Positions 12,780-55,158 of a DNA stretch of 64,000 bases are shown one piece after another. The stretch spans positions 5,332,001 to 5,396,000 of the forward strand of contig JBHGNT010000004.1 of assembly GCA_043228905.1 (NCBI GenBank), read 5' to 3'. Within the stretch, counting starts at the first letter, position 1. The number at the start of each line of letters is the position of its first letter. The position numbers were made by a program, and so were the translations under genes. The notes under the pieces are model-generated. The model searched no databases. It saw nothing but the letters and a program-made list of their open reading frames with translations, and was not told the origin of the DNA. Source of the stretch: Azolla caroliniana (Eukaryota > Plantae > Polypodiophyta).

Positions 12780-15395
12780 GAGAGTGGAATAACGAGGGCA
12801 CGTTGTCGGCCGTCCCAACTACCGGGAGGATGACATGAGAGGAAATGAGGAGACGGCTCGAGTCAGGCTGAGTTCCATGGGTCAGAGATCAATTTGATGT
12901 ACATGGATTTCTATTAGAAGGGCAAATGGCTAATCAACACGAAACATGGTTGGAAGATACGTGCGGCGACCCACGCTACGTAGGAACTACACGGTGCGTG
13001 CTCGAACGTCCGGGTGAAGGTCGGTGATGTCGAGATCGACCAACCCTTCTTTATTCAGGATACATCTTCCCATCTGGTTATACTCGGCGAACCTTGCATC
13101 ACGGCAGTTCGAATGGAGACTATGTTGGACAACGGTTCAACGTACACAAGAGTGAAGAGCTAGGACGGTCGACACTCCATCCAGTTTTTGATAGTTTGGT
13201 TGAACCATGAGAGGAATCGAGACTCCCTCGGCATTGAGTGCCGTGAGGACTTTTAGAGAGGGCTATCAAGGCGTGGGGCTGCAATAGTAGGTCTAAGCGA
13301 AGACCAAACGATTCCACTCAATTCAATTGAAATGTATGAGGTTATCGAGGAGTTTGAAAGGTCAGTCGGGTTCGGTCGGACTGATTGAGTCAACACGAAA
13401 TACAAGACTGTGAACCAGAAGGTGAGGGCTTTCGTGACCGACCCAAGCTTACGAGATCCGGCCGGCATAGGGCACCAATTCATCGACGAAACACTACAGA
13501 AGTTGAAGATCGGTGGGGGTGGCTTCCTACTGCCAGCGGAGGAGGACTAGTTTCAGAGGATGCTTGAAAGGCACGAGAAAGCCTTCGCATTCTCACCGTG
13601 GGAGATCGGGTGCATCGACCCGACGATAATAAAACCAATGGTGATCTTCACGGTAGATCAGATGTACCGTGGAGCCTCATACTGTTTCCGGTGCCGAAGC
13701 TGATGGAGTTGCTCAAGGAGGAGATCAACATGGGATTCTCAAACCGTAGCCCATACTCGAATCGGTGGTTCACGGTGTGTCGACCGGATGATAATAGAAC
13801 CAAAGGTGATCTTCACGATATCACATGTATCGTGGAGCCTCAAACCGATTCTGGTGCCGAGGGCTCACATTCCGAAGTTGATCGAGCTGCTCAAGGAAAA
13901 TATCAACATAGGGATTCTCGAACCGTCGAGTGCCCCATACTCGAATTGGTGGTTCACGGTTCCAAAGAAGAACAACACAGTACGCTTTATACAAGACTTG
14001 CAGCCGGTCAGCAGAGTGACCATTCGAAATGCAGGAGTTGGGCCGACAATTGATGAATTCGCGAAGGCTTTCGTTGGAAGGTCTATCTACTCAGTTGGCA
14101 ACTTATACTCCGGGTATGACCAGTTCCAACTAGTTGTCGAATGCAAGGATATCACAACGATGCAGACCCCTCTCGACTTAGTTTGGATGTGTACCCTACC
14201 TCAAGGAGGTACTAATTCGGTGGTGCACATGGTGAATGCATTGAACAAGGTACTGAGGGACCGCATCCTAGACATCACCATGCCATTTTTGGACGACATC
14301 CTGATAAAAGGATGTCCAGAGGACGCAAAGGAAGAATCGGTTAGAGAGGATGGATGTTGGAAGTTTGTTGCCGACCACATCACCGACTGCTAGAAGATAT
14401 TGGACTGGCTGAAAGGGGCGCGACTAACCTTCTCCGGAGAGAAGTCGGTTTTCAGGCAGTCGGAGATCGTGGTGGTTGGACACCTATGCAAACCTTATGG
14501 TTAGAAACCATCTCCGACAAAGGTAGCGGCCATTTCGGCCATGAAGGAAGAATGCAGGTCGACCATCGAGGTTCGACGACTCTTTGGGGCATGTGCCTTC
14601 TACCACATCTGAATCCCGCACTACGTGCGCATTGCAGGGCCACTCTACGGCTTGCTAAAGAAGGGGCGGAAGTTCGAGTTGAGAGAAGAGAACTCAGAGT
14701 TGGTTCGAAGATTGAAGGGAATGTTGATGGCGACATCGGCTCTCCAGAAAGCAATGTACAAGGACTCTCCGATATTCGTCACGGTCGACACAAGCCTAAC
14801 TAGAATCAGATGGGTTATTAACCAAGAAGATAAAGTCAGAATGCGGTTTTCCATATGATTTGGTGCGAAAGTGTTAAGTGAGCGACAACGGGGATACGCC
14901 CAAGTCAAGTGGGAGCTGTGGGGTATCGTCTCGGCAGTTAATGCCGACAAAGATTTTCTGATCGGGGCGGAGGTTATTATTGAGGCGGACTGCCTCCCGA
15001 TTCTCAAGATGGTGTCTGGATGCGCTACTCCGGACCTATCACATACATCAAGTCCCTGAATCTGAAGATCCGACACATCTCCGGTTAAGACAATGCCATG
15101 GCTGACATGCTATCGAGAGCGTAGTTCGACGAAGAAGACGAAATGGTGTCGGAAGAGGAAGAAGTCAGTGAGGACTTCTTCGAGTTGGCTCAATTGTCGG
15201 AAAATAGGCAAAGCACTCTGACCATACACGAGTTCAATGAGGACGACTACGACGGGGACTGGCTTCCGATCGGAAATTTCCTAGGGTTGATGACAACGAA
15301 CGCATCAGAGACAAAGGAGGAGGCAAGCCGAATCAGGAAGAAGGCGTACTAGCTCTTCTCGAGGGATGGTAAGATATGGCAGCATTCAAAGTGGC
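12780..15395 (+). pseudogene. Ty3/gypsy pol fragment (protease, RT, RNase H, start of integrase region)
   Basis: EPSSAPYSNWWFTVPKKNNTVRFIQDLQPV..LYSGYDQFQL..LPQGGTNSV..FLDDILIKG; RNase H IFVTVDTS, ERQRGYAQVKWELWG. Confidence 0.9.
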
Positions 15396-16133: not shown

Positions 16134-16745
16134 CATACTATTTAATATATAATTCTATATCTACAAATCCATAGGTTATCACCTCTCTATTTTTCATCTC
16201 TCCTCTCTCTTACTTTTCGTCTCTCGTCTCTCTTACTTTTCATCTCTCCTATCTGTTATAGATTAGGAACACGGCCTACCCTCTGTCCTTCGAGGTACGC
16301 CTCAAGAAGATCGTGGTACAGAGAATGGACAGTGTAGTGCGTCTAGCCTTAACCTACGAGAATGGGTAGTGCGTTACGAGGGGAAGGCGTAACAGGATAC
16401 GGCTACAACCGAACACCTTCTTACTGTAGGTCGTGGTTTACACAGATACACCACTTACCCTAAGAACAATTACGCTTCCCTATGAACACAGAGTTCAGAT
16501 AATACTCGACATAGAGTTCAGAAAAGACAACACGATTATATTAGACGGATTATACTCCCAAAACTACGGTAGTTGTTTACAATGTTCTTATGCCCTTTAT
16601 ATATGCAAGGCATGGACGGTTACGATTAGTGCGTGAACCGTTGCATGCGCTTTATGCTTTCTAACACTTCCATCATTACAGAATATGCTTATCCACTAGT
16701 TCGCCTTTAATCTTCGTCTCGTTTCTCACTAGGGTGGACAACACC

Positions 16746-16762
16746 TGGCACGCCTGTGGGAC
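16746..16762 (+). promoter_or_regulatory. tRNA-Arg-type PBS-like motif in inverted orientation next to the 3' LTR
   Basis: TGGCACGCCTGTGGGAC, 2 nt after the LTR end at 16743; same TGGCACGC core as the PBS at 39062. Confidence 0.6.
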
Positions 16763-16948
16763 AATGCCATGGCACGTTGGATCCATCCTCCTTCTCTACT
16801 CATTATCCAAAGTATCGAGGATATTTGGTTCTGGGCGCTTGTCATTGTTTATCGTAACAGGCGGTGTCATGACATGGATGGGCTCACCATTTTTTGGCTC
16901 GGCCGGAAGTCCCTGCATCGTGGTTTCTGCATCTGTTGCATCTCCCTC

Positions 16949-18879
16949 CTAATGGTCGACCATCGCATCCTCTTGCAAAGTCTCCACCGGTGGTTCTGTC
17001 TGTAATTCCTCGTCTACGCCTATGGGAGTCTGGTATGGGTCTCTTTGTAGCGGCTCATTTGCCGCGACTACCGGATCATGGGACATAATGATAGGTGCGG
17101 CCAATGTCGTAACCTCCGGAGCTGCATCTTGTTCGTATGGACTCTCGTGTTGTGCCACGGAATCACTATCTGGCAGGATGATGGCCTCCGCCTTTCTTGC
17201 CTCTTCTGCCCTTGGATGTTTGTTGCCGATGTCATTCAGTTGGTGGAATGTGTCGTCTTGGCTTTCATTGAAGTCCTCTAATAGCTTTGCCATTTCTTCG
17301 GTGTGGCGGTTGTCTAAGGACTGGTAATCTTCCGTAAGGTCTTAGCGAATTGTAGCGATGCTCTTTTCGCTTAGCTTGTAAAACCTTTTTCCTTCCTTAT
17401 GCTGATTTTCCCAGTCCGCTCTGTATGTGTGGAGTTCCGCTGCCTGTGCTGCCCATCCAACCCATCCTCTATCTAACACCACTTGTAGTTGGGTCGTAAA
17501 TCATTCTTGTTTTGTTTGGAGGACGATGCGGATATGGTCCGTGTTTAGGCGCGTGCAGGCCTGTACGTCCTCAAGAGCCTTCTTGAGGTTCTCAACTTTC
17601 CCCTTGTTCGCCACCGCTGCTTCTTCATAAAGTATCTTCATTTGTGCCCAAATTTGCGACTCCTTCTTATGGAGCTCCTCTAGCCGGCCCATCTCTTTGT
17701 TGAGGCATAATTCGACATCACACTTGAGTTGGCGCTCGTGCTCGAGCTATTCGTCTAAGCGCCACGATGGTGCTTTCCTTCTTGGTCCCTTCCTCGTGGA
17801 GCTTGTCCCTCTCCGCATTCATTTGGCAATGCATGGCCACTTCCGCGTCGAGCTTTTCCTGAATTGCCTTGACCGCCTTACGTCCTTTTCATTGAATGTC
17901 TACTTCTCTGTCTGAGGACTGACGGAGTTCCGACCTAAGACGATCGATCTCAGATTCGGCTAGCTCAGTAGCCCTTTTTGCTTTAGCTGTTATTGCTTTT
18001 TGAGCCTGTGCCTCCTCTCGTAAGGTCTGTAGGTCGGTCCTCTGGGAGGTAGGAGCGGGAACTGGTTGCGCCGTTGGTGCATTGCTCTCAACCTCCTTAA
18101 TATGCAGTTGTGCTTTATTCAGCAGCTCCTGGTTACTTTCACGGTTTTCCAAATGTTTTTGTTCTTGATTGCCATATCTTTGGCGCCTAGGGTGACCTTT
18201 GCCAACTCCCTATGAACCTTGACTAAGGCCATATTAAGCGGAGGGAGCTTGATCCCTAAGCCGTGAACACCTGCTTTTCTCTTCCTTCCTACCAACGCTA
18301 GTGGGCCTTCATCTTCGCTTTCCGCCGTCTGTTTCAGAGCACGCTCGATCATTTGTTGTTCGGCGTGCTAATCGGCCATTCGCTGGGACACCTTAATCTG
18401 CTCTGTCGCCAGGAACTCCATGAACTCATAAGTTATGCCGAATTGCAAGAGGGCGCCGAACTCATGGGTCATGTCCAGGATGCTTGGGTAGGACAAAACT
18501 TTGCTTTCCGAAGTTAGCACACCCTTACCACGTTGCGATTGTTCGGTTATTATTGGCCGACGTTCGGGAATCAACTCCAATGGTTTAGGGTTCTCAACTC
18601 GTGGGGTTGTATCCTTAACAAGCATGCGACCGTCCTTTCTGTTCAGTCGTCCGCGCTTGGTTTTTGGGCTTCCACGTGCCATCTCTTGCTTGGCTTGGGT
18701 GCGGTTCATTGGTGGTTCGTCTTGTGATGGGGTGGCTTCCGTTTCATGCGGGTTTGCTTCTTCCTCCTATTCTATCTCCACGAGGTCAGCTAGTCTTCAT
18801 TTTGCTGACTGTGGCGTGGGTGTTTGGTGGCTCCTTTCCGGGGTGGGGACGTATGATAGGGTGAAGCTTTTTCCCTTTA
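16949..18879 (-). pseudogene. Accessory 3' ORF (coiled-coil, charged) of the Athila/Tat-like family
   Basis: RGKGVLTSESKVLSYPSILDMTHEFGALLQFGITYEFMEFLATEQIKVSQRMA..MIERALKQTAESEDEGPL, homologous to 53859-54701. Confidence 0.8.
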
Positions 18880-20105
18880 TCACGGTGTGGGCATTGAGTT
18901 GTGTAATGACCTGGCTGTTGATAAATAAAACAGTGGATGCTGAACTCACCTTTTTCAATGACTGGGGTTGCGGTTGTTTCCATCGGTGCCGTATGTTCTA
19001 CCCGGGGTCGCTTGAACAACTTGTTGTTGCGGGGCTTCTAGCGATGTTCACGGCGACTATCCTAGTGTCATTCTTCCTCCGAGCTTTCATCGTGGTTACA
19101 TTGGTTCCATGATTGGCGATTACATCCGTACGAACAGGGTTCCGCCTGTTCGCCGGGATTGTTGGTGGTACGCCAGTTAACATAGCGGCGTCCTCCCCGA
19201 GGATTATAACGGTCATTGCTCGGATACTCCTGTTCATCTTGCTCCTCTTCGTTTGAATAAGGATGGTTGTTGCGATGGAGGTGCTTCGGCCTTCCCGCAC
19301 GCTGATTCCTCTACGTGTTATGGTAGCGCTCCTTGTGTCGGCCTTGGTCGTTGTTACGGTAAGGCCGTTGAGGCTCCATATGACGGACTGACGGTGTGGG
19401 CCTATTCAACATGTTATATTCGCACTGATCCACCGTGTGCACCCATGAATGAAAAATGGGGCAATGGAGCCGCATATTACAATCCACCGCGGAGTGCCCT
19501 GAGTTCAAGCAGATCGTGCATTGAATGGCTTGGCGGAAACGGTATTCCTCATCCCTAGGTAGTGCTTGACGGAGCGATGCCATAGACATCCCATCGTCCT
19601 CCTCTTCTAACTCAAGCTGCAACGCCCATTCTATGACCGCATCCGTCATTTGGCTTGTCAAATTTTGCATATTTAACGTTGTCCAGAGGGGTCGACGTAT
19701 TGCCGCCAAAAATATTTCTTTTGCCTCGTCCTCCGTGGGAGCGCATACTAGCTATCATCATAAACTCTGGAACCGCAAGCTGAAGTCAACCATGGACTCT
19801 TGCAACAACTGTTTGATCCTATAAAATTGGCCGATGATCTCACGTTGGGGAATGCTTCGATGAATGAAGCGTAAAAACGATGATTGGAGCTGGTCGAAGG
19901 AGATGAGCGACGTGATGTTGAGCTAGGAATGCCAGCAGGAAGCTCGCCTATCCAGGGTTAACCCAAACTCTGTGATTTTTGGTGCGTGGGCTTCCATTTC
20001 CGGAAGTTGTTGTGACATAAGGTTCACGTTCCAAACATTGAGGAAGGACCGAGCGTGGCTCTCGGCGTCAGTATCTCTACTGAAGCGAGGGTATGAGAAA
20101 GCCAT
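18880..20105 (-). pseudogene. gag (retrotransposon capsid plus Zn knuckles)
   Basis: MAFSYPRFSRDTDAESHARSFLNVW; CTICLNSGHSAVDC; CFIYQQPGHYTTQC. Confidence 0.85.
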
Positions 20106-21099
20106 TCCGGTCTATAGGCTATCACTTGGGAGTCAGAGTACTGCTGATGTGATGTGAGGTTTTCGGGGAAGTGGTAGTTTCACTATACTGGTCTAGTGGA
20201 GATAGGACCTCTTGACAGTGCCACTCTATTCAGTGAACGTCGATTCTAGGATATACTCTGAGAGAGACGGAACGCAGTCGTTGAGTTGTGGTTTTCGTGT
20301 AGCACGTTCTTCTGCTTTTTGGGTCTAGGACCGGGTTTGCGGTCAATCTTGTCGGGTTGGTTCTCGGTTGCGTCAGTAGCTAGAAATCCATTCCCTGATG
20401 CTCGACTGTGAGAATCACAGACAAAAGTGTTACCGATTAGGAACACGGCCTACCTTCCATCCTTCGGGGTACGGCTCAAGAAGATCGTGGTGCAGAGAAT
20501 GGATAGCGTAGTGCATCTAGCCTTAACCTACGGGAATGGGTAGTGTCTTACTGAGTGACCACGAGGGTAAGGCATAACAGGATACGGCTACAACCGAACG
20601 CCTTCTTACCGTAGGTCGTGGTTTACATAGATACACCACTTACCCTAAGAACAATTACGCTTCCCTATCAACATAGAGTTCAGATAATACTCGACATAGA
20701 GTTCAGAAAAGACAACACGATTATATTAGACGGATTATACTCCCAAAACTACGGTAGCTGTTTACAATGTTCTTATGCCCTTTATATATGCATAGCATAG
20801 ACGGTTACACTTAGTGTGTGAACCGTTACATGCGCTTTATGCTTTCTAACGCTTCCATCATTACAAAATATGCTTATCCACTAGTTTGCCTTTTATCTTC
20901 ACCTCATTTAGCACTAGGGCGGACAATACTCTCTTTTACACGAGTTTCTATACCTCCTTTGCACCCTTCCTTTTCCCTCTTCCTTTGCATGTGCAAAATT
21001 AACTACCTTTGTATACGCACACATTGCACATACACATTTTGACCCCCTTTCACCGTTTTTTTCCCACACTTGGCATGCCACATCACGACACCGTGACAA

Positions 21100-29009: not shown

Positions 29010-29274
29010 ACGCGTGTAACGGTGTCGTGTGAATCTTCTCACATTATGTAAAAAAATAAATAATAAAATAAGTACTTTATATTAGCTTAATGATATGTTA
29101 TAGAAAGATGGATGTTTGAGAAGATAGGGAAAATAGAACTATGATTTATCCCACATAGATAGGAAACTTAAGGCTCTGGCTATATAAGCACCTTGAGATC
29201 CCTCATTTTTTATTTGTGCTAAGAACACTTTGGCCACTTTGTCTTGATGGATGATGGTGGCCAAGTTCCCAAAA

Positions 29275-29540
29275 ATCGGAAACCGGCCGGTAAGCAAAAT
29301 CAAAACCGATCGGTAAGCAAAACTGGAACCGGCCGGTAAGCAAAAGCGAAACCAATCGGTAAGCAAAACTAGAACCGGCCGGTAAGCAAAATCGGAAACT
29401 GGGTGGCAAGCAAAACCGAAACCGACCGGTAAGCAAAACCGGAAACCGACCGGTAAGCAAAACCGGAAACCGATCGGTAAGCAAAACCGAAACCGGCTCG
29501 TAAGCAAAACCCGAAACCGGCCGGTAAGCAAATCGGAACC
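29275..29540. repeat. Minisatellite in LTR, ~20-21-bp unit (AAACCGNCCGGTAAGCAA)
   Basis: Roughly a dozen units; shorter array in the 3' LTR at ~32465-32650. Confidence 0.9.
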
Positions 29541-38251: not shown

Positions 38252-39393
38252 TGACTCCATATATATTCCATTTTTTTCCCTATACTCATCCTCTCTCCAT
38301 TATTTTCTTTTCCTTCTTAGCTCCTTTATCTTATGGAAGCCATAACACTAAAAAACCCTAATTTTCCCTACGGAAGCCATAACACTCAAAAACCCTAATT
38401 TTCCTTACGGAAGCCATAACACTAAAAAACCTTAATTTTCCCTACGGAAGCCATATCTCTCAAAAAACCCTAATTTTTCTTTTCTATTAAACTTAGTAAA
38501 CCTAAACTTCTGAATCCCAATCTTGGGACATATTGTAATTTCTTTCTATTTGTTAATGAAATTTGTCAATCTTTCTTATTTCCGTTAATTGTTAAAAATA
38601 TAAATGCATGAATTTGATATCCTCTTGTCGGAGGCCCCGGGGTCCTACCTCAAGTTCACATATCCTCGTCATATTTTTGAGACAACGGTTCACGCAGGAA
38701 GTGTAACTGACTAGGCCCTGTGTATATAAAGGGCATATGAACATTCTAAAGGGTTAGCGCATCTTTGACCATGGTCTTTTAATATAGTTTCTGTCTTCTT
38801 TGATTCCTGTCTCTTGTTTCTTGCCTTTTATCTCTGTGCATGACTGTGTACAAGTAAGCGTAAGGTGAAGTACGGGTGCATATTTACGCACATTAGGAGC
38901 TCGGCTGTTGCCGTCTCCCATTACGCCTTTTGTATACGCTCTACTGCATAAGTCCCTACGTCCTACGTGCTACGCCAACCTCTTCTCCCTTGCACCACGA
39001 TCACTTTGATACCTACCCCGAAGGACTGATGGTAGGCCGTGTTCCTAACCAGTAACACTTTTGGCACGCTTGGTGATATGTGAATCCTCACAGCCGAGCA
39101 GCAAGGAATGGATGTCTAGCCGCCGATGTATCAGAGAACCTACTCGACAAGATCGACCACTGACTAGATCCATCACCCGACATACAGAAGAACGTGCTAC
39201 ATGGAAACCCCGCCTCAACGACCGCGCCCCCTCTCTTCAGGAGTACAAAGTAGACTCTACGCTCACAGAACAGAGTAGCATTGGACAAGAAGTCTTATCG
39301 CACCTAGACCAATATAGTGCGACTAAGCTTCACAGCAGCCCTCACCACGGAAGCATCAACCTTCCCTTGCCTAGCTTCACTATCGCAATCAGA

Positions 39394-42300
39394 ATGGCCT
39401 TTTCATACCCCCGTTTCAGCGTAGAAACCAACACCGAGAGTCACCTACGGTCGTTCCCCAACGTGTGGAACGCCAACCACATGGCACAGAGGTTGCTTGA
39501 GGCGGAAGCCTACGAATCGAAGGTCGCCAAGTTCGGGCTAACCTTGGATGGTCGGGCTACGCGGTGGCACTCCTAGCTTGATCTAACAACATTCGCAACA
39601 TTCGACGCCTTATCAACAATCGTGGATGACCAGCCGGTCCCCGATAGAATGACAGTAATCGCCAGACACAGGAATAACGCCATTACCGGGAGAGTTTAGA
39701 GGACGAACGACACCAAGAGCTTCGCCGGGAGTATCGCTAAAAACACCGTAACCACAAAAGATTTCAGCAGCCACGGAAAGAGTAACATGCACCCTTGGAC
39801 ACCACCACACTGCCAGAAGTAGAGAAAGGCGAATCCAGCGTACATTGCTTTGTGTGCCAACAACCAGGCCACTATGTGACGCAATGTCCACAGCGCAATA
39901 AAGGCAAGGACCTAACCATGAATTCCATCACGGCGAATATCCAAGAAGTGACTACACGCAGTTAGACGAAAAACACAAAATGGACAACACAAGATGACAT
40001 ATGCAAGGCAGCCTAGGCCTGGGTGGAGAAAGAGAATGAAGCAAGAATCGGTGAGCGCCACGACGCTGATTGAACATAAGGCACTATCGCCAGACCTGCT
40101 ATGGCAAGCTCTCGTGGACTGCAAAGTCACGCTGACCATGGATAAGCTCCTACGACTGGTCCCACGATTCCGACATGTGGTAACAAATCATATACGGGGC
40201 ACCGCCGGACTAGAGGTCTCGACCAATTTCACAAAGTCCAATATTGGCCCAACAGTGGTAGATAACCATAACTCGGCCATAAAAGTGGTGCTGTAGGGCC
40301 AAGAAATACGGGGATGCATCGTCGACGGAGGTTCCGGCGTAAATGTCATTAGTAAAACCACGTGTACTCGGTTGGGCATTACGGACTGGGAAACGTGCCC
40401 ATTCTGGCTCCGTATGGCAGACACCCGCTCCGTCAGACCCCTAGGATTAATTCGAAAGCTAGGGATTGTAGTCGGGGGCCATCACTTTGACATTTCTGTG
40501 GTCGTGCTCGCACTGGACGCCCCAGGGGTGTACCCAATTTTGTTAGGTAGACCATAAATGGTTTGCTAATATCAAGCAAAGCTGGCAGCATAATTGTATC
40601 AGTTTCCGACACGGGCGAAGCAAGGTTCGCATACTGACACAGGAAACATCCGCACTGACCAAAGCTATAACACCACTGTACGCGGAGGAAATTAATATGC
40701 TAGAAGGATTGGACGATATAGAGCTAGAAGTGTACCTTGACGAAAACCCGCGAATAATAGCACTATTCAAAATCGACGTTCTCGAAGCCGCTACTGAGTA
40801 CGCCCCAACAAGTACGCTCCAAGAAGAGGAGTACGAACCTGATCCCGAGTCTATTTTGGAGCTAAGCGGAGCACGAGAAGCGTTCGAGAAAGAAATGGAA
40901 ATATCGTAAAGGGTTACCGCGTCAGCATTGGAGGAGATTAATGTCGGAACCGCAGAGGTCCCACGACTACTATCAATCGATAAGGACATGTGGCCAATGG
41001 AGAAAACGGCCATGACGGAGCTGCTCCAAGAGTTTAAAGATGTTTTTGCATGGTCACATGAGGACATGAAAGGCCTAGACCCAAAATTCTATCAACACAA
41101 GATTAACTTGGCCACGGATGTGAAATCGATGCAGTAATGACGCTATGACATGAACCCAAATTACGCGGCCTGCATAAAGGAAGAAATTGACAAGCTCTTG
41201 AAAGTAGGGTTCATCCAACCAGTCAAACAGGCCACATGGTTGAGTCTGATAGTCGTGGTACCAAAGAAAAATGGGAAAATACGTGTGTGTGTTGATTACT
41301 GGAAACTGAACGTCATTACGATTACGAACGCATTTCCCTTACCGTTTACAGATAGCGTACTAGACGCAGTCGTGGGCCATGACATATATAGTTTCTTGGA
41401 TGGCTTTAGCGGATACAATCAAGTACGCATGCACCCGAATGATCAAGAGAAGACTGCGTTCGTCACAGACTGGAGAATGTTCGTCGCTGTAGTAATGATG
41501 TTCCGGCTGAAGACGGCCCCCGCCACCTTCCAACAGACGATTAAGGAGATTTTCAATGAATATATACCTACTTTTATGAAATTTTTTCTTGACAACTTCG
41601 TGGTGTACGAGGCGCGAGGTGAACATTTGGGCCATTTACGGCTCTGTTTGGAATGAGGCTGGACCTCACATCTCAGCCTTAATCCGGCTAAATGCGCATT
41701 GGGGTCACGAGTGGAGCACTTCTCGGTCACATAGTGAGTAAGGAGGGGATATCGATAGATCCCAACAAAATTCGGGCGATTATTGAAGCAAAAACTCCCA
41801 GTAACGCAAAAGCCCTTAGTCACTTCCTCGGGCAAATATGTTGGCACAGCCATATGTTACGATACTTGGCGAATTTTGTACTCCGTTCAAATGGATGGCA
41901 ATAGAAGACAAGGCGTACGAGGCTCTTAAAATAATGTTGACCCAAGTGAAAGAACTACACGCTCCCGATGAACAACGCTAGACCACAGAAAACGGGTAAT
42001 GAACGCATGACACAGTGAAGAGAAGAGTACACAGGATGTTTACGTGGAAAAGCCAAACTAGGGAAAAACCACGGCAACCCATAGATCGCAAACTATCACT
42101 ATATCACAATGTACAATAGTAAAGCACTGAGGCAACGACCTCGAGCTTGCTATCTTCGCCACATGCGGCGGTTACAACAGAGGCAACGACCTCTTCCTCT
42201 CTCTCTCTCTCTCTCTATACACAGTTATGCACTCAAATCTTGCACCAACAAGAATGACTACTTCTTCACTAAGCTTGCTCTAAGTCATATTTATACTAAT

Positions 42301-44175
42301 ATGACTTTTCGGCTATTTACAAATATAGCCCCAAAGGACTCTCAGAAACATATTTACGAATATGTCCCTTCATCCGGTGAGCACTCCTCACTGGGCCTGC
42401 ATCATCCGGATCTTGTTGGGCACTCGTCATCCGGTTCTCACCGGGCCTACACCATCCGAATCTTGTCGGGCACTCGTCATCCGGTTCTCACCGGGCCTAC
42501 ACCATCCGGCTCTTGTCGGGCACTCGTCATCCGGTTCTCACCGGGTCTTCACCATCCGGCTCCTGCCGGGCACTCGTCATCCGGTTCTCACCGGGTCTTC
42601 ACCATCCGGCTCTTGCCAGGCACTCGTCATCCGGTTCTCACCGGGTCTTCCTTGCCGGGTACTCCACATCCGGTTCTCACCGGGTCTTCCGTTGCTGGGT
42701 ACTCCACATCCGGATTCGGCCGAGGCCTATCGACCAAGGCCAAGTTGCTCTTCAACACTGTTCTTCTCACTTCCCATCCAAAGGGACCTGTTTCCTAGCA
42801 CCAAGTGCCCATCGTACAACCCCTAGATTGGACTAGATCATTCCACGTGTTTGTGGATGCCTCGGAAATTGCAATCGGTAGCGTGCTAATGCAGCTTACC
42901 GAGCCCAATTGGTACCGACTGGTCTACTACTTAGTCGTAAATTATCAGATGTAGAGCGGAATTATTCAACGATTGAGCGTGAAGCCTTGGGAATGATCTA
43001 CAACATAAATAAATTCCGACATTACTTACTAGGGTGGAAATTCATATTTCATGTGGACCACGCGACGCTACTCTACTTAGTCGAGAAGCAAGCATTAACG
43101 AGGAAATTGGCCAAATGGATGCTGGTACTCCAGGAATTTGAATTCACGATCCAACATCAGTCGGGCATGCAGCACATCGTAGCCGATTTTCTAAGTAGAA
43201 TAGATAACGGCAACGACGCAATCAAAGAGGGTGATGATTTCCCCGACGCAAATATTCTACGGGTTGCGACTACAACATCATTGGACGAGAATTTTTTTGC
43301 CCGGGTCAATGGCTGATGGAGATGACCTATTTCTTGACAACGGGACTGCCACCACCACATCTACAGATAGACAAAAAGTAAAGACTGACAGTACGGAGTC
43401 GCAATTTCTGCTTGGTGGAGGGAGTGTTATATCATAAAGAAAGCGATGGTATTTGGAGGCGTGGTATACGACAGGATGAGAAGGAGGCAGTGTTACGCAA
43501 AGCTCACTACGGAACGGCAGGACGCCATTACGTAGGAGACGTTACGGCCCCAAAAATGTGGCAAGTTGGTGGCCAACTATGAAAAAAAGACGTGTATAAA
43601 TATTGTAAAGAGTGCAACCTCTCCCAACGTCTAGGCTAGCCAACGGAGCTCGCACGGATGCCTCACCAGCCGGTGCTTCCGCTTGACCCTTTCCAAAAAT
43701 GGGGTCTCGATTTTGTCGGCCCCTTTACTCCGGTAGCGTCACGAACAAGTAATAAATATATCCTAGTCGCCACGGATTATTTCACAAAGTGGGTAGAAAC
43801 GAAAGCGTTACGAGATAATACTGCGGCATCTACGACAAAGTTCCTCTATGAACAAATTTGGTGCCGTTTTTGACTGCCCAATAGAACTCATAAGTGATCA
43901 AGGGAGCCATTTTTTGAATACGGTTATCCACAAGCTCACAAACCATTACGCTGTAGTACATAAGAAGAGTATGCCGTATTACCCTCAGGCGAGTGGATTA
44001 GTGGAATCAACGAATAAGACGTTGTAGACCATCCTAAAAAAGATCGTTAATGAGAATAGAACGGATTGGGATACGAAGCTGCATAGCGCTTTGTGGGCTT
44101 ACCGAACGAGCTATAAAACTAGCATACAATCCACTCCCTTTCGACTAGCGTTGGAGTTGGAAGCCTAATGCCCAT
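39394..44175 (+). pseudogene. Gypsy gag, protease, RT, RNase H and integrase (split by solo LTR; integrase resumes 52219-52660)
   Basis: MAFSYPRFS; IVDGGSGVN; GKIRVCVDY..FLDGFSGYNQ; ERNYSTIEREALG; [24 protein letters not shown]; no archaeal-type extra RNase H seen between RH and INT. Confidence 0.92.
41947..42800 (-). mobile_element. Solo LTR (related to LTRs 48579-49117 and 57723-58390), TSD CCAAG, with CCGG-rich tandem repeats
   Basis: CCAAG at 41942-41946 and 42801-42805; TG..CA ends; ~50-bp repeats at 42400-42715; removal restores MLTQVPIVQP. Confidence 0.92.
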
Positions 44176-47100
44176 TGTTGAGCCGGATCGGTATTCAGAT
44201 ACAACCGGCCGGATCGGGGAGATGGATCAGAGAGCTGGATTCGAGCGGGAACCGGAAGCGTAGTAGTAGCCTAGACTACTAGGTAATCATTGTCTCGTAG
44301 TTTTTGTCAATCGTTCGTATGAGCATTGAACTACTTGTGAGTACTTTTGTCAGTCCTTTATGGACTTTCTATAAATAGTGTTGTTATAGCACATCATATG
44401 TACAGAGTGTTCTTAATATTTTGAATCAACATTTATGTTCTGCTCTCTCTGTCTCTCCTGTGTATACTCCTTGTGTATTAAGCTTTACCATTAAACCTTC
44501 ATCTTATTCTTTGTTCCTATCCGCCTGAGCCGGTTTTGTCTAACGCTTCCGCACATTAACATTCACATGGTATCAAAGTGCGAGGGTTGAGAACCTCTGC
44601 AACCGATACTTGGTTTCGTAGACAAACCCTAGAACCTGGTAACAATAGACAGAAAGAAGATATGGATATCGGAATGGCGAGTTCACTTCCAACAGAGAAG
44701 CTCGACCAGAGCAACTACGCATCTTGGTCATACAAGATGCACCAATACCTGCTAGGGCATGGATATTGGAGCGTCATGGAACGAACGAACAAGGTAGCGC
44801 CGGAGCCGGCACACGAGGACTTCCCGGTATGGGAGCAAGGAGCGAGTCGAGTATTGTACTGCCTCGCGTCATGTGTGCACGATCAGATGCTCGACTACAT
44901 AAAGGATGCAAAAACACCAAAGGAGGCCACTGAATCGGACAACCGGATGTTGTACACGTAGTCGGATCGGCCCCGTGGACGTGGAGGACGAGGTGGGTCG
45001 GCACGCAATAGAGGCAGCCGGCAAGAGCAGGACAGAAGGCACCGAGATAGTGTTGATCGCAGTTTCGGACCCTCCATAAGCAGGGGGAGTCAAAGCGGCA
45101 CTAGGAACCGGCAAGGAAAGGCAGACACGGAATGCTGGTACTGTGGCAAGAAAGGCCATAGGGAAAGCAAGTGCTAGAAGAAGCGTGCCGATTTGGACAA
45201 ATCCGGATCCAGCAAAACCGTTCGGGAAAACCGGCAAAGCTCGCACTACGCAGAAGGATCAGAAGCATCTAGAATTGGGAAGACCGGTAAAGGGTCAACC
45301 TTCGTGATGAAGCACAAGGCTAACTCGATGAAGAAAACTACTTCCAAATCGGAGGAAGTAAGGTATGTTGATTCCAGAGCATCCAACCACATGACGAGCC
45401 ATGAAGAGTGGTTCTCTTTTTTGGAGAAGCCGGAACAACCGGGGATTGTCGAAACTGGAGACAACACCCCTCACCCAATTGTGCATGTCGGAGAAGTCCC
45501 TTTGAGCCATGTTGAATAGAGGAGGTACTCGCATTGCTCCTACTCGGTTCCCTCCCGGACAGCTGGGAGACATTAGTTGTCACGTTGGGCAATGCCGGGC
45601 CAGAAGGAAAATAGTTGTCCCTAGCAAGGGTAAAATCAAGCTTGCTAGATGAAGAAGCTCACCGGAAGGACCGGGAGTCCAGAACTGATCCAAAGGCCTT
45701 GGTCACGAAAGATGACCACAACCGGGAAAGACGCCGGTATCAAAGTCCCCAAAACCGGGACAAGTCGGGGACGAGGTCTAAGTCAAGGGGGAGGCCTACT
45801 TGCTTCTACTGTGGGAAGTCGGGGCAATTCCAAACAAACTGTCGACATTTATGGAAAGAGAAAGAAACCGACACCACCGATTCGAAGAAGAGTTCGGACC
45901 GAAGAGGCCAGGATCGGAAGGGAACGCCGGCGATCGCGACAAGTGAAGAAGAACTGATGCTCATTACCAAAGAGAATGAGTTAAACCTTGTCGACAACGA
46001 AACAACGTGGGTTGTCGATTCCGGAGCGTCGTTCCACCTGACACCGGACCGGAAATGCTTCTCATCCTACACAGCCGGTGATCATGGTTGTGTCCGGATG
46101 GGGAATGAAGGTACATGCCGAATTTTCGGCATAGGAGATGTGTTGTTTATGACATCAACCAGATGCAAGTTGCTACTGAAGGATGTCTGACACGTTCCGG
46201 AGGTTCGACTGAAACTGATATCAGCCGGTGGGCTAGATGATGAAGGCTACATGGGTAGTATTGGGAACAGAGTAATGAAGTTCAACAAAGGGAGTCTAAT
46301 AGTGGCTCGAGTCCGGAAGGTCAACACATTGTACTTGATGCATGCCCGGACATGCCGGGAAGAAGCGAACGTAGCATCCGACACTGCTGGTGAGCTGTAG
46401 CACAAAAGACTGTGTCACATGAGTGAGAAGGGGATGAAGAGGCTTGCCGAAGACAACCTCATTCCGGTGAAGGATGTGCAACTTGAGAAGTGCATAGATT
46501 GCTTGGCTGGCAAGCAAAACCGCACCTCCTACCGGTCAAGACCACCGATGAGATGGAATGCACCACTGGAGCTGGTGCATACCGATGTGTGTCAAGTGGA
46601 CACAAAATCACATGCTGGATCGCAATACTTCATGATGTTCATAGATGACCACAGTCGGAAGCTGTGGGTCTCACCATTGAAGACGAAGGATCAAGTGTTA
46701 TCCATCTTCAAGGAGCTCCATGCAAGAGTGGGAAGAGAAACTGGCCGGAAGCAGAAGGCGGTTTGAGCAGATAATGGAGGAGAATATCGGGGGTAGTTCG
46801 AGGAGTACTGTCAGTCGAAGGGAATCCGGCTTGAGTTTACTATGCCAAAGATGCCAGAACTAAATGGGCTGACCAAAAGGATGAACCAGACCATAATGGA
46901 GAGAGTCCGGAGCATGCTAGCACATGCAAAGTTACCCAAGACATTTTGGGGTTGAGGTGCTAACGATGACAACCTATGTGATAAATAGATCACCCTCAAC
47001 ACGCTTGGAAGGAGACTCACCTCAAAAAGTATGGACCGGTAAAGACGTATCTTACCGACATCTGAAGGTGTTCAAGTGTCTCGCATATGTGCATGTTGCA

Positions 47101-50100
47101 AAGGACAAGAGAGAAAAGTTGGATCCGAAGTCCAGGCCATGCATATTCCTTGGATATGGTGATGATGAGTTCGGTTATCGGGTGTAGGATTTGGTCAACA
47201 AGAAGGTTACCCGGTTGAAAACCAGACACTAGCCGGTAATCAGATGACACTCGACGAACTGGTCAGATACGGACAAGAGACCAAACCGATCGAAGAAGAA
47301 GAAGATGATGATGATGAAGACACCAGAACCGGACAAGATCCTGAATCGAATGAGGATGAGGAACAAACGGAGGAACCGACAGTTAGAAACCAAGGATGGA
47401 GATATCCTCTCCGAGAGAGAAGAGACTCCCGGAGATTTTTGGATGTAGAGCATGTGTTGCTAACCGATGAGGGGGAGCCGGAAAGCTTCGAAGAAGCAAA
47501 GAGAGATACCCACAACCGCAAGTGGTTGAGTGCCATGCAGGATGAGATGGATTCCCTGCATAAGAACCCCACATATGAACTGACAAAGTTGCCAAAAGGG
47601 AAGAGAGCAGTCCGGAATAAGTGGGTGTACAAGTTGAAACCGAGAGATGCCAGAAATCCACCCAGGTATAAGGCCCGAGCAATGGTACCGGAAGTTCAAC
47701 TCCTTCATGACCGACCAAGGCTACCACAAAACGCGAGCAGATCACTGCGTGTTTGTGAAGAAATTTGACAGAGGAGATTTCCTGGTTCAATATGTTGGAG
47801 GCGAAACCGGTCGGATCGACACTTCCGGCAATCTACAAGCTATCCGGAAAACAAATCCTGAGGACAAAGGCAGAGAAGACGGATATGATGAAGATACCAT
47901 ATGCCTCTGCCGTCCGGAGCTTGATGTACGCAATGGTATGTACCCGGCCGGATATCGGATATGCAGTCGGAGTGGTGAGCCGTTTCATGAGCAATCCCGG
48001 CAAAGAGCACTAGAACGCGGTGAAGTGGATACTCCGGTACTTGAAAGGAACCTCGAGTATGTGCCTCCAGTTTGACTCTGGTAATCCCCAACTTGACGGA
48101 TTCACAGATTCAGATATGTCGTCTGATGCGGATACCAGACGGTCTACATCCGGATATTTCATGACTTATGCAAGGGGAGTTGTTTCATGGCAGTCAAGGC
48201 TGCAGAAGATGGTTGCATTGTCAACCACAGAGGTGGAGTACATGGCAGCTGTAGAAGCCGGTAAGGAGATAATCTGGATGAAGGACTTCATCAGAGACCA
48301 AGGAATCCAACAGGAGGAATACCGGCTCTACTGCGACAGTCAAAGTGCCATCCACCTTGCAAAGAACGTGGCCTACCATTCCCAGACGAAACATATCCAG
48401 CGGAGGTACCATTGGATCCGGGAGAGAGTAGAAGATCAAGAGTTCGTGTTGACGAAGGTCCACATGGAGGAGAACGGATCGGACATGTTGACCAAGGTCC
48501 TGACAACCGACAAGTTGGACGCGTGCTGAAAGCGGATCGGGCTAACAAGATAACCCATGCCGAAGTGAAGGGGGAGATTGTTGGGAAATCGGTCTCTCCG
48601 GATGGGATCAAGTGGTGAATAAAGAGGACCCGGTGAGAACCGGAAGAGAGATCTGGAAACCGGAGGAGACCCGGTGAGAACTGGAAGAGAAGACATATTT
48701 GTAAATATGTTTTGAGTAAGCCTATTGAGGCTATATTTGTAAATAGCCCTAAGTTCATATAAGTATAAATATGACTTAGGGCAATCACTTTGTAATGTGG
48801 TTATTATTGTTGTTGTAACTGTAGTACAGAGAGAGCGACAAAGAGAGGGAGAGAGAGATACAAAGCGATACTCCATTGTAACCGCCGGTTAGCGAAGATA
48901 CAAAGCTCGAGGTCGTTGCCTACGAGTCTCTGATTGTACCCCTTCTCTTCATAGTGATAGTTCGGAGTCTGTGGGTTCCCATGGTTTTTCCCTATTAGGG
49001 TTTTCCATGTAAACATCTTGTGTTCACTCTTTAGTTCCCATTTATGTGTTCTCCATTCTCATCGAAGTGTTCAAGTCTCGGTTGTGGCCGAGCAATATCC
49101 CGCGTTATATCTCAACACATCCTAGTCGGTTCCTCGCATGAGCAAAAGGGGTATAAGTGCTATAACCCCCGGACTAAGCCGGTCCGAGTAAGCTGAGATG
49201 TTGAGTTCGACAAGACGGCATCGTGGTACTCTCTACCAACTCCGACTTCCGACTCAGACCCGATTCTGGAAGATGAGGCCAGTGAGCTTGAACCGGTCCA
49301 AATAGAAGATGACGAGCTTGAGACTCTAGAAGAGAGTCCTGAATCGTTTCGGTTGAGTGGACCAACTAGCGATTGGGTCAAAGTGACCAGCCGGATGAAG
49401 AACCGGCAAGTAGTGGAGACTCTATCATGCTCTCCCCGCGCAAGGAACTGAGGAGACGGTTCACGCACAAAGAGAAAGGGAAGCAGAAAATGTCGGAATA
49501 TGAAACCGGCAATGTGGAGTCGGATCGGAGCGAATCCGACTTGGGAAAGGATGAAGGTGCATCTTCGGGACCGAAGTTCGAACCGGCCAAGAAGGGCCCC
49601 AAACCGGGTGGTGACAGGTTACGCCGATCTTCCCGCTAGAAGAACCCCGTTACGTGGTACGGGTACAATGAGTACATGGCGCATCACTATGCGTACATGA
49701 CCAAAGTGGCGGAAGTGCGTGAGCCGGAGAGCTACGCAAAAGCCGGAAAGTATGCAAATTGGCGTGCCGCTATGGAAGAAGAAATGTGGGCACTCAATAC
49801 CAATGACACATGGGACCTTGTTGACCCTTCTCGACATTGTAAACCGATCGGTTGAAAATGGGTATACAAGGTAAAGTACAATGCCGATGGTTTGGTTAAC
49901 TGCTACAAGGCCCGGTTACTGGCGAAGGGATACGCACAGACCCACGGAATCGAGTATGATGAGACCTTCGCTCCTGTAGCGAAGATGACGACAGTGCATG
50001 TCGCACTGGCGGTTGCTGCAGCAAGGGGGTGACATCTTCGCCACATGGACATGAAGAATGTGTTTCTTCAAGGTGACCTTGAAGAATGGGTCTATATGAT

Positions 50101-52213
50101 CCAACCTCCCAGTTTCCAGTCGGAGATGAACAAGTCGGCGGTGTGTCGGCTTAAGAAGTCGCTTTACGGTTTGAAACAAGCCCCCGAGCTTGGAATGCGA
50201 AGATCACGCACCGATTGCATAAGATGGGGTTTGTGACCTCTAAATCTGACTCATCGTTGTTCATTCGGCAAGGTCTGAACGGTCTGGTTTCTATCTTACT
50301 TTATGTAGATGATTTAGTCATTACCGAACCCAGACTCGTTGAAATTGGTCGAGTAAAGTCCCAGTTGTCGGACGCATTTGAAATGAAGGACCTGGGGGAC
50401 CTTCATTATTTCCTTGGGATCGAGGTGATCCGAACCCCCGATGGCATATTTCTTTCACAACGCCATTATGTGTTGAATATGTTGTACAAGTTCGGCATGA
50501 CGGAATGCCGACTGATCTCTACACCCCTAGACCGGAACCTGAAGCTATGTCCCGACTCAAGAGCGGCCTACGATGAGAAACGGTTCTGACAAATTGTCGG
50601 AAGCCTCATATACTTGACAATCCCTCAACTCGACATCAGTTACCCAATCGGAGTGATCAGCCAATTCGTGAAGAAGCCGACCGTCGAGAACCTTCAGTGC
50701 GCACACCGGATACTCCGATATGTTAGCGGTACGAAGGACCGGGGACTGTTATACCGGCATGGTATAATTGGGTTGGTGATGCATCTGATCATCGATGCAC
50801 CTCCGGTTACATGTTTTCTCTTGGTAGCGCGGATGTTGCATGGAGCAGCAAAAAACAGCCAACAGTGGCTCTGTCGAGCACTGAGGTTGAGTATCAGGGC
50901 ACTACCATGGACATCTGTGAAGCCATCTGGCTTCGGCGACTTCTATGTGACATCCAGCTCGAGGTACCAACCCCAATCCTGATCTACTGTGACAACATGA
51001 GTAGCATTCAGCTTGCCAAGAACCCCGTGTTCCATGCTCGGACGAAGCACATCGAAGTCCACTATCACTTCGGTATGTTGAGACGGATCGGCAAATTGCC
51101 GACATCTTCACCAAACCGCTCGGATCAGACAAGTTGCAACACTTCACCGAAATGCTTGGTGTACAACATCTCGACGTGCCACACTTGTGGGGGAGAACAA
51201 GAACGGGCAAAGGCACTAGTGATGGCACCAAACAAGAAGCCAGAGAGGAAGAAAGAACCAAAGGGGGAGATGAGCAGAAAAAGGTAGTCGGGCCGACCGA
51301 AGGAGTCGGCACATCTGAACAAGTCGTAGCAAGCAGCAGCGGCGACAGAGTCAAGAAGGACAGAGCCGACCGGAAGAAAGCCAAGACCCGGACATCGTCT
51401 AATGTGGTGAAGGGCCTAAAAACAGAAGACGAGTTGGAAACTACCAACTCGGACAAGAGCTAGAACGAATCAGAGGAAGCCAATTTGGTTCAAGATTCAG
51501 AGAAGCCGAACTAAAGGCCAACCGGACAAGAAGGCAGCAGATGTCGACACCGACACGGACGAATCGATGGATCGACAAGTGTCGGATTCATAACAGCGAA
51601 GGAGTTGAAATGGGCCTGTTGAGCAGATAAGCCGACCAAGGAGGTCGAGGTGCACAGTACCAGACGGGTTGCGGGAAGCGGAACCGGACCAGACCAGGAG
51701 CGCGAGTAAGGCGGAACGACGCTAGAAGGAGTTGGGTGGAAGGACTGGCTGCCACAGACACTAACACCACGATCCAACCTCAAGTTGAACTTGAGGGGGA
51801 GTGTTGAGCGAGCAAGCTCAACCGGACCCGGTTTGGCTGAATAAGCCAGAGCCGGATCGGTATCCGTATACACCTGGCCGGATCGGAGAGCCAAATTCGA
51901 GTGGGAATTGGAAGCCTAGTAGTAGCCTAAACTACTAGGTAATCATTGTCTCGTAGTTAGTGTTAGTCGCTCATATGAGAATTGAACTACCTGTCAGTAC
52001 TTTTGTTAGTCCTTTATGGACTTTGTATAAATAGTGTTGTTATAGCACATTGTATGTACAGAGTATTTGAATCAACATTTACGTTCTACTATCTCTGTCT
52101 CTCTCATCTATACTCCCTGTGTATTAAGCTTCCTCATTAAACCTTCATCTTATTCTCTGTAGCTATCCGACTGAGCCAGTTCTGTCTAACACTTCCGCAC
52201 GTTAACATTCACA
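44176..52213 (+). mobile_element. Ty1/copia element nested in gypsy integrase, TSD CCCAT; same family as 23366-27414
   Basis: LTRs 44176-44567 and 51802-52213; CCCAT at 44171-44175 and 52214-52218; PBS 44568-44579; PPT 51791-51801; gag/PR 44660-45515; RT/RH 49700-51190. Confidence 0.94.
45518..49117 (+). mobile_element. 5'-truncated Tnt1/Tork-like copia nested within 44176-52213 (3' LTR 48579-49117)
   Basis: CFYCGKSGQFQTNC; WVVDSGASFH; LELVHTDVC; EPESFEEA; GFTDSDM..SWQSRLQ; PPT GAAGGGGGAG before the LTR; RT core internally deleted. Confidence 0.9.
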
Positions 52214-52218
52214 CCCAT

Positions 52219-52660
52219 TGAATTTCAAGTTCCCAGCTTGCGGATTCAAGTACACAAAAGACTGTTGGAGGGACAGTCCGAGCAAATCCTGTTGCAGCAA
52301 TTACTTGAATTAGGCGAAACTCGAGTCCACAGTATGACAATACTAGAGCATGAGCACCAAAGGCGTAAAGCGTTCGTAGATCGGCATCGAGGCATGAGTG
52401 AAAAACACTTCAAAATTGGGAAAGTCATGATAGTCTTCCAAACCCGGATAGGCCAAATGCCGGGGACACTACGATTCTGTTGGATAGGGCCGTATTGGAT
52501 AATAGGAGCAGAAAACGCGACCTTTCAATTAGGCACCCTTGCAGGTAGAATACTATGGCAAAAGCTGAACGGGTTCCGCTTGAAGCCGTATTTGGAACCT
52601 ACACCCCCGAATCCATTTTACGTCGTAAATGATACGGTAGCTGGGTCCCGCACCAACTAG
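52219..52660 (+). pseudogene. Gypsy integrase C-terminus (GPY/F motif)
   Basis: LRFCWIGPYWI..LNGFRLKPY. Confidence 0.85.
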
Positions 52661-53074
52661 TAGTCGGAACCCACTTGTAAGAATGTAACAATAATATTGT
52701 AATTTACCGTTAGAAAAAAGAAAAAAGAAAAAAGAGAGAGAAGATAATCACGACTATTAAAAGGCTTTCATGCATGCACAATTTCCTAGGAAAAGAACAC
52801 GCGTCGGCACAATGATGCATAGGCCCATGAACCTTAAGTCCGAAAAAGAGGAGAACAGACGGTTTTCTACACATTACAGAAAACATTCTCAAGCTCTCTG
52901 CTCTCCTCTTGCTCATCGCTCTCCTTGCTCTCCTCGTGCTCCTCACTCTCCTTGCTCCCCAGCCTATCATAGGTAGCACGGTCTGTGACACTCGCGTGCC
53001 TTAACCCCTAATCACTCCTCACACGATCCTTGCCACGCTAGTATGCCGATCCCTATCTCCTCAGTATTGCATTG

Positions 53075-55158
53075 ATGGCTTCTAGAAAAGGGCTTCGAAG
53101 GTTACATCCAAGTAGCAGAGGTGCCACCGCACCCTGATGCCCAAGAAATCACCAAAAAGCTGAATGTCGACACAATTACGAAGGCTAGCATCAGAAAGAA
53201 GCTAGGTTTGACGGCGACCGGAGAAAAACACTTCAAGATTCCCCCTACAGAGGACTTGGAGAAATATTTCAGAGAGTACTCAACCTCGACCAAGACGAAG
53301 GATATCCCAAATTCTTTTTTCCGGGAGGTAGCGAAGTTCTTGCTAGAAGTCGGTTGTGTCCACATCAATGCCTACGGGATACCAAACTAGAAGGCAGACA
53401 TCATCATCGACACATTCGAGGGAGGCGTCATGGACTGGGGGGTAATCACGGGACCAACGCTAAGGGCGGGCCTGCACACATTTCAAGCCAGGAAGAAGCT
53501 GCGGCCGGTAATACAACAATACTTAACTGTACTATTCCCACGTCGAGGTCTCCCTGACCCGGACATGAGCAGACGTAAGCCTCCACCACGGTCTGCGAAA
53601 CGGCGATTGGTAGATCTCGCAACAATGGAATGGGAGGAAGAGCCGAACCTTTCCACCACTAAAGAAGCACCACGACAAGCAGCGCAACAGGACCATCGCA
53701 TTTATCTCGGGGAAGCGCAAAACACAGCCGGACAGAAGGAACAAGAGCCGAACCGCGGCAGTCCCAGGCCTAAGCGCTGAAGGCTAGATCAGAAGGATGG
53801 TCGCGAACTGGTAAAGGATATAGCCGCACCGATCGAAAAGTCCGCCCCTACGGAACCCATGACCACATTAGAACTCATCCGCGAGCCACAACTAGTCATA
53901 ACGGCACAATTACAACGTGGAAAAGGCGTGCTGACGGCAGAAAGTGAAGTGTTGCACTATCCGGACATTCCGGATACGGCCCATGAGTTTGGCGCGTTGT
54001 TACAATTCGGGACGACATATGAACTCATGGAATTCCTGGCGACACAGCAAATCAAGGTGTCCCAACGAATGGCCGAGGAGCACGCCGAACAGAAGATGAT
54101 TGAGCGTGCACTAGCACAAACGACGGAGAGCGAAGATGAAGGTCCACTAGTGAAAGTGGGCTGGAAACGTAATGCAAGGGTCCGGCAAGTTGGAATTGAA
54201 TTGCCTCCCTTGAATGTTGCCTTAGTGGAGGTTCATCGGGAGTTAGCAAAAGTGAGCCTGGGTGCCAAAGATATGGCAATCAAAAATAAAAATGCTTGGA
54301 AAACATTAAAAATGACCCAAGAACAATTGAACAAGGCGCAGGAGTGCATCACGCAACTAGGGTACAATGCGGCCAATACGCAACCTTCCCCGGCCCTTGC
54401 GCCACACGACGCGGAAGTTCAGACGCTAAGGGAAGTGGTGGAGGCCCAAGCAACACTCATGGCAAAGGAAAAAAGGGATACGAAGCTAGCCGAAACGGAG
54501 ATTGACTGCCTTAGATCGGAGCTCCGCCAATCATCTCACAGAGAAGTAGACATCAGGGTGAAAGGACGCAAGGTTGTCAAAACACTTCAAGTTAAGCTTG
54601 ATGTAGAGGTAGTGGGCATGGCCGAACAAAGGAAGAGAAGAAAAGGTTGTAGGAGGAAGCAAGCAAAAAGGAGGCCGTCATTACAGCGTTACGGGAATTA
54701 GCACAAAGCAAGAACGTGTGGTATGAAGAGTAGCTCGCACATGAGCATGAACAAACCCACCAATCGAAATATGCTTGAATAATGAAATGGACCGGCTCGA
54801 GCAACTGCACTTGAAGGAGTCTGAGATCGGGGCACAGATGAAGACCCGCTATGAAGAGGCGACAACACCTAACAAAAGGAAAATTGAGAATCTGAAGAAG
54901 GCATTGGAGGAGTCACTAGCCAGCTCCCAAATACAGAAGGACTGGATCCGCGTACTCCTCCAAACAAAGCAGGACTAGTTTACGAGCTTTGGACAAGGGT
55001 TGGGTCGGATGGGCAAAACAAGCAGCCAAACTCCACACCTACCTAGCGGACTGGGAAAATCAGGCCAAAGAAGGCAAAGGCTTCTATAAGCTAAATGAAG
55101 AGAGCACGTCGCGGTACGAGAAGACCTAACGCAGGACTATCACGCGTTAACCGACCGG
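53075..55158 (+). pseudogene. Accessory sense ORF downstream of integrase (Athila/Tat additional ORF; N-terminal DWG domain and long coiled-coil)
   Basis: ORF pieces 53121-53390, 53430-53780, 53859-54701, 54775-54978; homologous to 16949-18879. Confidence 0.8.

Follow-up and report, generated by a model that had tools for sequence, protein, structure and literature searches.

Among LTR retrotransposons and retroviruses, plus-strand synthesis from a polypurine tract (PPT) is taken to be the general rule (PMC5371799), and most elements have a PPT (PMC6317226). Yeast Ty3 primes its plus strand from a 12-nt PPT, and its bipartite primer binding site (PBS) has a 3′ segment that is complementary to the tRNA in the genomic RNA (PMC5371799). 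The lineage described here resembles Ty3 in its LTRs, 5-bp target duplication, PR-RT-RH-INT order and tRNA-primed minus strand, but an inverted tRNA site replaces the PPT, and the 3′ segment in the genomic RNA is identical to the tRNA, with opposite polarity. A PBS core with a separate T-arm-pairing box, as found here, is also a feature of Ty1 (boxes 0 and 1; PMC3592414) and of the HIV-1 primer activation signal (PMC13191261). Those signals act at the 5′ end of the genomic RNA in the priming of the minus strand, whereas the one described here would act on minus-strand DNA at the 3′ LTR.

Among plant Ty3/gypsy elements, the Tat/Ogre/Retand group is defined by an archaeal RNase H and has a tRNA-Arg (or Lys) PBS; Athila elements use PBSs of the Asp, Asn or Ala type; and Phygy and Selgy combine a 4-bp target-site duplication (TSD) and a tRNA-Trp or tRNA-Ala PBS with no extra ORF (PMC6317226). 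Chromoviruses carry a C-terminal chromodomain in their integrase.

Results

A dead, pol-less element on the minus strand

The 64-kb stretch of DNA analysed (the window) holds plant LTR retrotransposons nested within one another. The element under study and its full-length relative within the window have the following features.

16249..16253: left TSD (CTATC), 4/5 identical to 20929-20933
16254-20928, minus strand: whole element, an old pol-less Ty3/gypsy derivative with all frames broken
16254..16743, minus strand: 3′ LTR, from LTR alignment and TATA direction
16744..16745, minus strand: 2-nt spacer from LTR end to tRNA site
16746..16762, plus strand: putative inverted primer site TGGCACGCCTGTGGGAC (17 nt), 2 nt inside the 3′ LTR end
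16764..16775: small hairpin that interrupts the tRNA match between positions 59 and 58, a perfect 4 bp at 16765-16774 in this copy, with compensatory changes
16777..16786, plus strand: T-arm box, complementary to tRNA nt 58-49 as read from the sequence
16786..16797, minus strand: 12-nt purine run overlapping the extra-ORF stop
16796..18619, minus strand: extra-ORF remnant (C-terminal, coiled-coil-like part) with stops and frameshifts
18871..20105, minus strand: broken gag remnant with zinc-knuckle region
20422..20427, minus strand: what is left of the 5′ PBS junction, with 13 nt lost after 20421
20428..20928, minus strand: 5′ LTR, from LTR alignment
20929..20933: right TSD (CTCTC)
38626..39057, plus strand: 5′ LTR of the related full-length element
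39062..39075, plus strand: its 14-nt 5′ PBS, after a 4-nt spacer, with one difference from the family form
39394..55158, plus strand: its gag, PR, RT, RH, INT and extra ORF, broken and interrupted by nested copia insertions

Gag (20105-19350) and the extra ORF (18619-16796) are both read from the minus strand, and the plus-strand element at 38626 aligns in reverse with the LTR, TATA box and leader. The left LTR is therefore the 3′ LTR, which agrees with an earlier interpretation made from the DNA letters alone (the sequence-only reading), where the element was also taken to be minus-oriented. The direct LTRs are TG...CA-ended, with one terminal base decayed, and differ by 40 substitutions in 489 aligned columns (K2P 0.088), while the 5-bp target duplication (CTATC/CTCTC) has one mismatch and sits in low-complexity DNA. 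The copy is a dead pol-less derivative which has also lost its 5′ PBS. TR-GAG, LARD and TRIM elements are non-autonomous LTR derivatives with a PBS and a PPT. Like them, the window copy has no pol, while its LTRs, gag and a portion of the extra ORF are retained; but where those classes keep a PBS and a PPT, the derivatives of the present lineage keep a PBS and the inverted tRNA site.

The 3′ LTR of the related plus-strand element was not found within the 64-kb window. The window also holds a broken gypsy-type RT-RH (13794-15118, plus strand), ~21% identical to the lineage, and tandem arrays of 23-28-nt units (plus 25/50-nt units) at 29266-29561, 32456-32633, 42337-42698 and 58165-58332, some of them inside copia LTRs.

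An inverted tRNA site in place of the polypurine tract

The sequence-only reading had placed a tRNA-like motif at 2-nt spacing beside the 3′ LTR, in the position of the PPT, and this was borne out by TGGCACGCCTGTGGGAC, whose match is unique in the window at ≤3 mismatches (chance expectation 0.13). The motif extends ~25 nt further in than had been noted, through the hairpin and the T-arm box. Numbered by tRNA genes that were found by pattern and called by ARAGORN, the element RNA reads tRNA nt 49-58, a 13-14-nt insert, nt 59-76 minus one base, 2 nt and then the LTR. The 3′ site in the element RNA is a copy of the tRNA 3′ end including its CCA, and complementarity to the tRNA is found on the minus-strand cDNA only, where the 17 nt pair with tRNA nt 76-59 with one base missing. 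The base m1A58, which pairs with U54 in the folded T-loop, is unable to form a Watson-Crick pair and marks the limit of the 18-nt PBS (PMC13191261), and it is exactly at this boundary, at nt 59, that the core ends.

No PPT was found at the 3′ LTR: the longest stretch of purines within the final 100 nt averaged 5.7 nt across 70 distinct junctions, against 6.0 in shuffled sequence, and four copia ends in the window, serving as positive controls, show textbook PPTs. The purine tract that had been reported ~40 nt inwards, at 16782-16801, does contain a run, which we place at 16786-16797; it was rejected as a PPT, with a run of ≥10 occurring in 1 of 70 distinct junctions (the window's own subfamily). 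The comparison with other copies, suggested in the same reading, turned up none with a canonical PPT beside its 3′ LTR. The lineage is without a conserved polypurine tract. Nested Ty1/copia elements at 44180-52213, 55646-64000 and 23366-27400 have ordinary PPTs and tRNA-Met-type PBS-like sites.

The inserted hairpin is 4-5 bp long, occurs in seven arm types and at one position shows all four Watson-Crick pairs among 65 distinct junctions. A perfect 4-bp stem was present in 36/65 of these, compared with 13.3 ± 2.8 in 2000 permutations, and covariation was 0.156 versus 0.059, a figure that understates the pairing (one subfamily is off-register by one column); both controls ignore relatedness among junctions. 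Mean identity of the T-arm box was 8.0/10, against 4.3 in control windows, when scored against the first 10 nt of the arm, which are identical in the Arg gene and the neighbouring tRNA-Trp. The window copy has 6/10 identical positions, and all four changes are wobble-compatible. T54 and C56 are kept in 61/65 junctions and A58 in 28/65, or, by LTR-end cluster, in 11/11, 11/11 and 6/11, respectively. G53 is replaced by A in 22/65 junctions, and A there still wobble-pairs with the real tRNA. Over nt 49-57, 67 of 93 changes are wobble-compatible, a count drawn from related rows in which neutral decay yields the same transitions. A D-arm-like word 91-100 nt before the LTR, seen post hoc in three loci from two subfamilies (L026, L047 and L048), may be a further tRNA contact.

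Distribution across the lineage

A metagenome scan with the pattern CA-NN-motif returned 85 stretches, in 82 of which the inverted site adjoins an LTR end (AACA in 79, TACA in two, CACA in one). The other three (L006, L062 and L064) have neither hairpin nor box, look like chance matches and were dropped before all counts. The pattern fixed the core and the 2-nt spacer, so conservation of the core is not measurable from the 82 loci, and at least 77 of them belong to a single accession series and are best regarded as a single source. Eleven LTR-end clusters were distinguished among the 71 loci with enough flank.

Orientation was assigned with intact gag, pol and extra-ORF queries. A coding match inside the site was present in 35 of the 82 loci and was antisense to the site in every case (34 extra ORF, one pol), and thus the site belongs to the 3′ LTR. 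Altogether 44 loci could be oriented, none of them as a 5′ PBS, and coding sequence gave no orientation for the other 38. A short conserved peptide closes the extra ORF, whose stop (window 16796-16798) lies 24-31 nt before the core in 30 loci, deleted derivatives included.

Contigs of public sequencing runs join LTR, motif and interior of the window family (X2 records 9 and 10, X3 records 17 and 18), and the same motif is found joined to numerous unrelated LTR ends; the summed contig depth at the site is ~50-170x that of the window LTR, which is not a copy number. The 3′ inverted site is lineage-wide and conserved across divergent LTR families. One metagenome locus (L066) holds, in order, an intact pol, an intact extra ORF, the site, a complete LTR and unrelated flank, with pol (RT, RH, INT) stop-free over 1067 aa and the extra ORF over 941 aa. 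Beside this dual-site element, at 7738-11391 of L066 on the minus strand, is a stop-free 1217-aa chromovirus pol. Another locus, L055 (1808 nt), is a mini element with ~500 nt between its 5′ PBS and its inverted 3′ site; it keeps the leader and the extra-ORF end only and so outlines the minimal cis signals. In L036, receptor-kinase reading frames, host-like when judged by eye, take the place of element sequence downstream of the site, indicating a truncated copy near a plant gene.

The exact motif was absent from the viral contigs searched, as were RT relatives. When the tRNA end was searched as a loose pattern of 14-15 nt, 120 viral matches resulted, all of them outside tRNA genes, and Rfam returned no relevant match on seven loci.

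The 5′ primer binding site

The sequence-only reading had the normal PBS missing at the 5′ LTR. For the window copy this stands, with 13 nt absent relative to the plus-strand element at 39058; it does not extend to the family, most other members of which keep the PBS. The 5′ junction was checked against contigs of four public runs, from three samples, three studies and two organism labels. At least five contigs cross it and contain a PBS-like insert of 13 nt there, and PBS-carrying loose ends were found in all four runs (at least 6+9, 11, 8 and 4+9 contigs). Among those listed, one contig (X4 record 25, corresponding to window 20290-20530) spans the junction without the 13-nt insert and shows 23 other differences; there may thus be a small PBS-less sub-lineage that is copied in trans. 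On the strand opposite the motif, the 14-nt PBS also occurs in 8 of the 85 metagenome loci, once inside the mini element and seven times across one LTR, where the loci are either tandem elements or products of assembly collapse. Loss of the 5′ PBS is for the most part peculiar to the window copy, and the family has both sites.

Identity of the tRNA

No tRNA gene was found in the 64-kb window. The exact 24-nt arm was present in seven non-host genes (three viral, four prokaryotic), called as Arg(UCU) in three, Arg(CCU) in two and Asp in one, with one uncalled. We take the 3′ end of land-plant tRNA-Arg(UCU) to match the site as well. With five of the seven non-host genes being Arg, and with this plant tRNA, tRNA-Arg is the candidate primer.

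A stand-in tRNA-Arg(UCU) arm co-folded with six loci formed a three-way junction in 6/6. Net energies ranged from -13.4 to -25.2 kcal/mol; the corresponding values were -15.5 when the core was folded by itself and -4.7 to -8.2 with the other strand, all calculated with RNA parameters and only a guide for an RNA:DNA hybrid. Relative to the core by itself, adding the T-box brought a net gain in co-folding stability in five of the six loci and a net loss in the sixth.

Priming of the plus strand

A lineage without a PPT carries an inverted tRNA site two bases from its 3′ LTR, and it is therefore likely (probability roughly 0.6) that a second host tRNA-Arg anneals to the minus-strand cDNA at this site and primes the plus strand. 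Such priming had been one of two options in the sequence-only reading, and it is now the best-supported one, with a mechanism that we infer rather than observe. Minus-strand synthesis would start as usual from tRNA-Arg at the 5′ PBS, and RNase H would clear the genomic RNA from the 3′ site. A second tRNA would then pair through nt 76-59, with one bulge, and through nt 57-49, the hairpin being looped out at m1A58 to give a three-way junction. Since the CCA end of the annealed tRNA would point into U3, at the spacing trimmed by integrase, reverse transcriptase would extend it through the 2-nt spacer into U3, after which RNase H would remove the tRNA and integrase would trim the 2 nt. Against this scheme, RNase H also attacks tRNA:DNA hybrids, and the core has a fixed 1-nt bulge relative to the tRNA. 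Speculatively, the bulge and the junction might shield or position the primer.

Plus-strand priming could instead come from the element's own RNA, if its tRNA-like segment survived RNase H in the way a PPT does and was cut after CCA(NN), with no second tRNA involved. The segment occupies exactly the place expected for a PPT remnant, and the L066 sense RNA is able to form a T-arm-like stem that includes the inner hairpin (-17.4 kcal/mol); for Ty3, cleavage at the PPT is set by local structure and not by purines alone (PMC5371799). The window copy, though, does not fold as such a stem, and the outer stem shows no compensatory change, albeit with its 3′ side fixed by the search. Mimicry of the tRNA is disfavoured because a T-loop mimic would need A58 and a G53-C61 pair; position 58 varies freely and A often stands in for G53, neither of which suits a mimic, while tRNA identity at 54 and 56 would be unneeded. 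The break at 58/59 and the free position 58 appear to fit annealing to a real tRNA better, and we regard an own-RNA primer as the main, though doubtful, alternative.

Improbable, in our view, is that the chief role of the 3′ copy is to pair with the 5′ PBS, circularising the RNA or gating the tRNA in the manner of Ty1 CYC5/CYC3, while the plus strand starts from an unrecognised RNA remnant there. The PBS and the 3′ copy do co-fold (net -15.4 kcal/mol in L025), and 5′-3′ pairing is needed in Ty1 (PMC3592414). Against this, identity with the tRNA is retained in the 3′ site at nt 62-59 and 57-49, positions that have no complement in the 14-nt PBS, and the exact LTR boundary without a PPT would be left unexplained. 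Pairing of the two ends may coexist with priming by a second tRNA.

The other option of the sequence-only reading was replication from an antisense transcript. In such a scheme the 3′ site would be the true minus-strand PBS and the 5′ site would serve the second strand. The 3′ site is the more elaborate of the two and has canonical 2-nt spacing, and both the window copy and the diverged X4 contig are without the same 13 nt of the 5′ PBS. The proposal rested on the missing 5′ PBS, however, and has lost that basis since most relatives retain it; pol-intact elements also carry the 3′ site. The LTR TATA box is directed towards gag, and the other end is likewise without a PPT, which would leave the second strand still dependent on a primer of tRNA type. 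An antisense genome is thus very improbable. That the site is a functionless reverse-transcription accident or chance match, as the old and broken state of the window copy might suggest, is scarcely credible, being contradicted by the same site at the LTR ends of 11 clusters, the covarying hairpin and an element with intact ORFs.

Classification

The relatives carry the PR-RT-RH-INT order (RT-RH-INT by Pfam in L066, and in the plus-strand element of the window), while the window copy has no pol. Pfam gave no archaeal RNase H match at E 0.1 in the L066 pol, where ~110 aa separate RH from the integrase zinc finger. It also found no chromodomain there, which sets the lineage apart from chromoviruses and from the unrelated neighbour in L066, where one is present. 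By identity, the named proteins closest in RT-RH come from Riccia, Marchantia and Adiantum (48-55%), and in a quick tree whose 45 rows included no REXdb references, RT-RH fell among liverwort and fern elements, outside the angiosperm rows; a seed-free plant is the probable host. The Tat/Ogre-type label given in the sequence-only reading was therefore abandoned, as the RNase H that defines that group is absent and RT-RH groups with liverwort and fern elements. The N-terminal part of the extra ORF resembles Transposase_32/ATHILA ORF1 models, below the Atlas's threshold, and has 159 short relatives, of which the 120 listed are all from metagenomes.

The lineage shares 5-bp TSDs and extra ORFs with Tat/Ogre/Retand, where a tRNA-Arg PBS, the candidate type here, is common. 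It is like Athila in having no archaeal RNase H, no chromodomain, a 5-bp TSD and an extra ORF after pol, but differs in its PBS, of Arg type by the non-host arms (5/7 genes), in having no PPT and, in the quick tree, in the liverwort/fern position of its RT-RH. From Phygy and Selgy it differs in its 5-bp TSD and extra ORF. Because TSD, PBS type and extra ORF together fully fit none of Tat, Athila, Phygy or Selgy as these are characterised in PMC6317226, it is best called, on present sequence evidence, an unplaced non-chromovirus Ty3/gypsy lineage.

Discussion

Searching the literature by concept, mostly in non-subscription sources, returned no description of a tRNA-primed plus strand or of an inverted PBS replacing the PPT. 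Searching by sequence gave no match to the motif string, nor did the part of the supplements of PMC6317226 and PMC5389709 that was covered. The replacement of the PPT is real and conserved, and apparently undescribed; how it works we infer from the site. An abundant lineage of plant LTR retrotransposons has probably abandoned the PPT and uses host tRNA-Arg to prime both strands, the second through a three-way junction at m1A58.

A successful lineage without a PPT means that the PPT rule can be broken, and it allows a direct test of how reverse transcriptase and RNase H choose and remove primers. Annotation tools that orient elements by PBS and PPT would likely read such elements backwards or reject them. 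The 3′ site also offers a second target at which tRNA fragments, or the supply of tRNA, could control the element.
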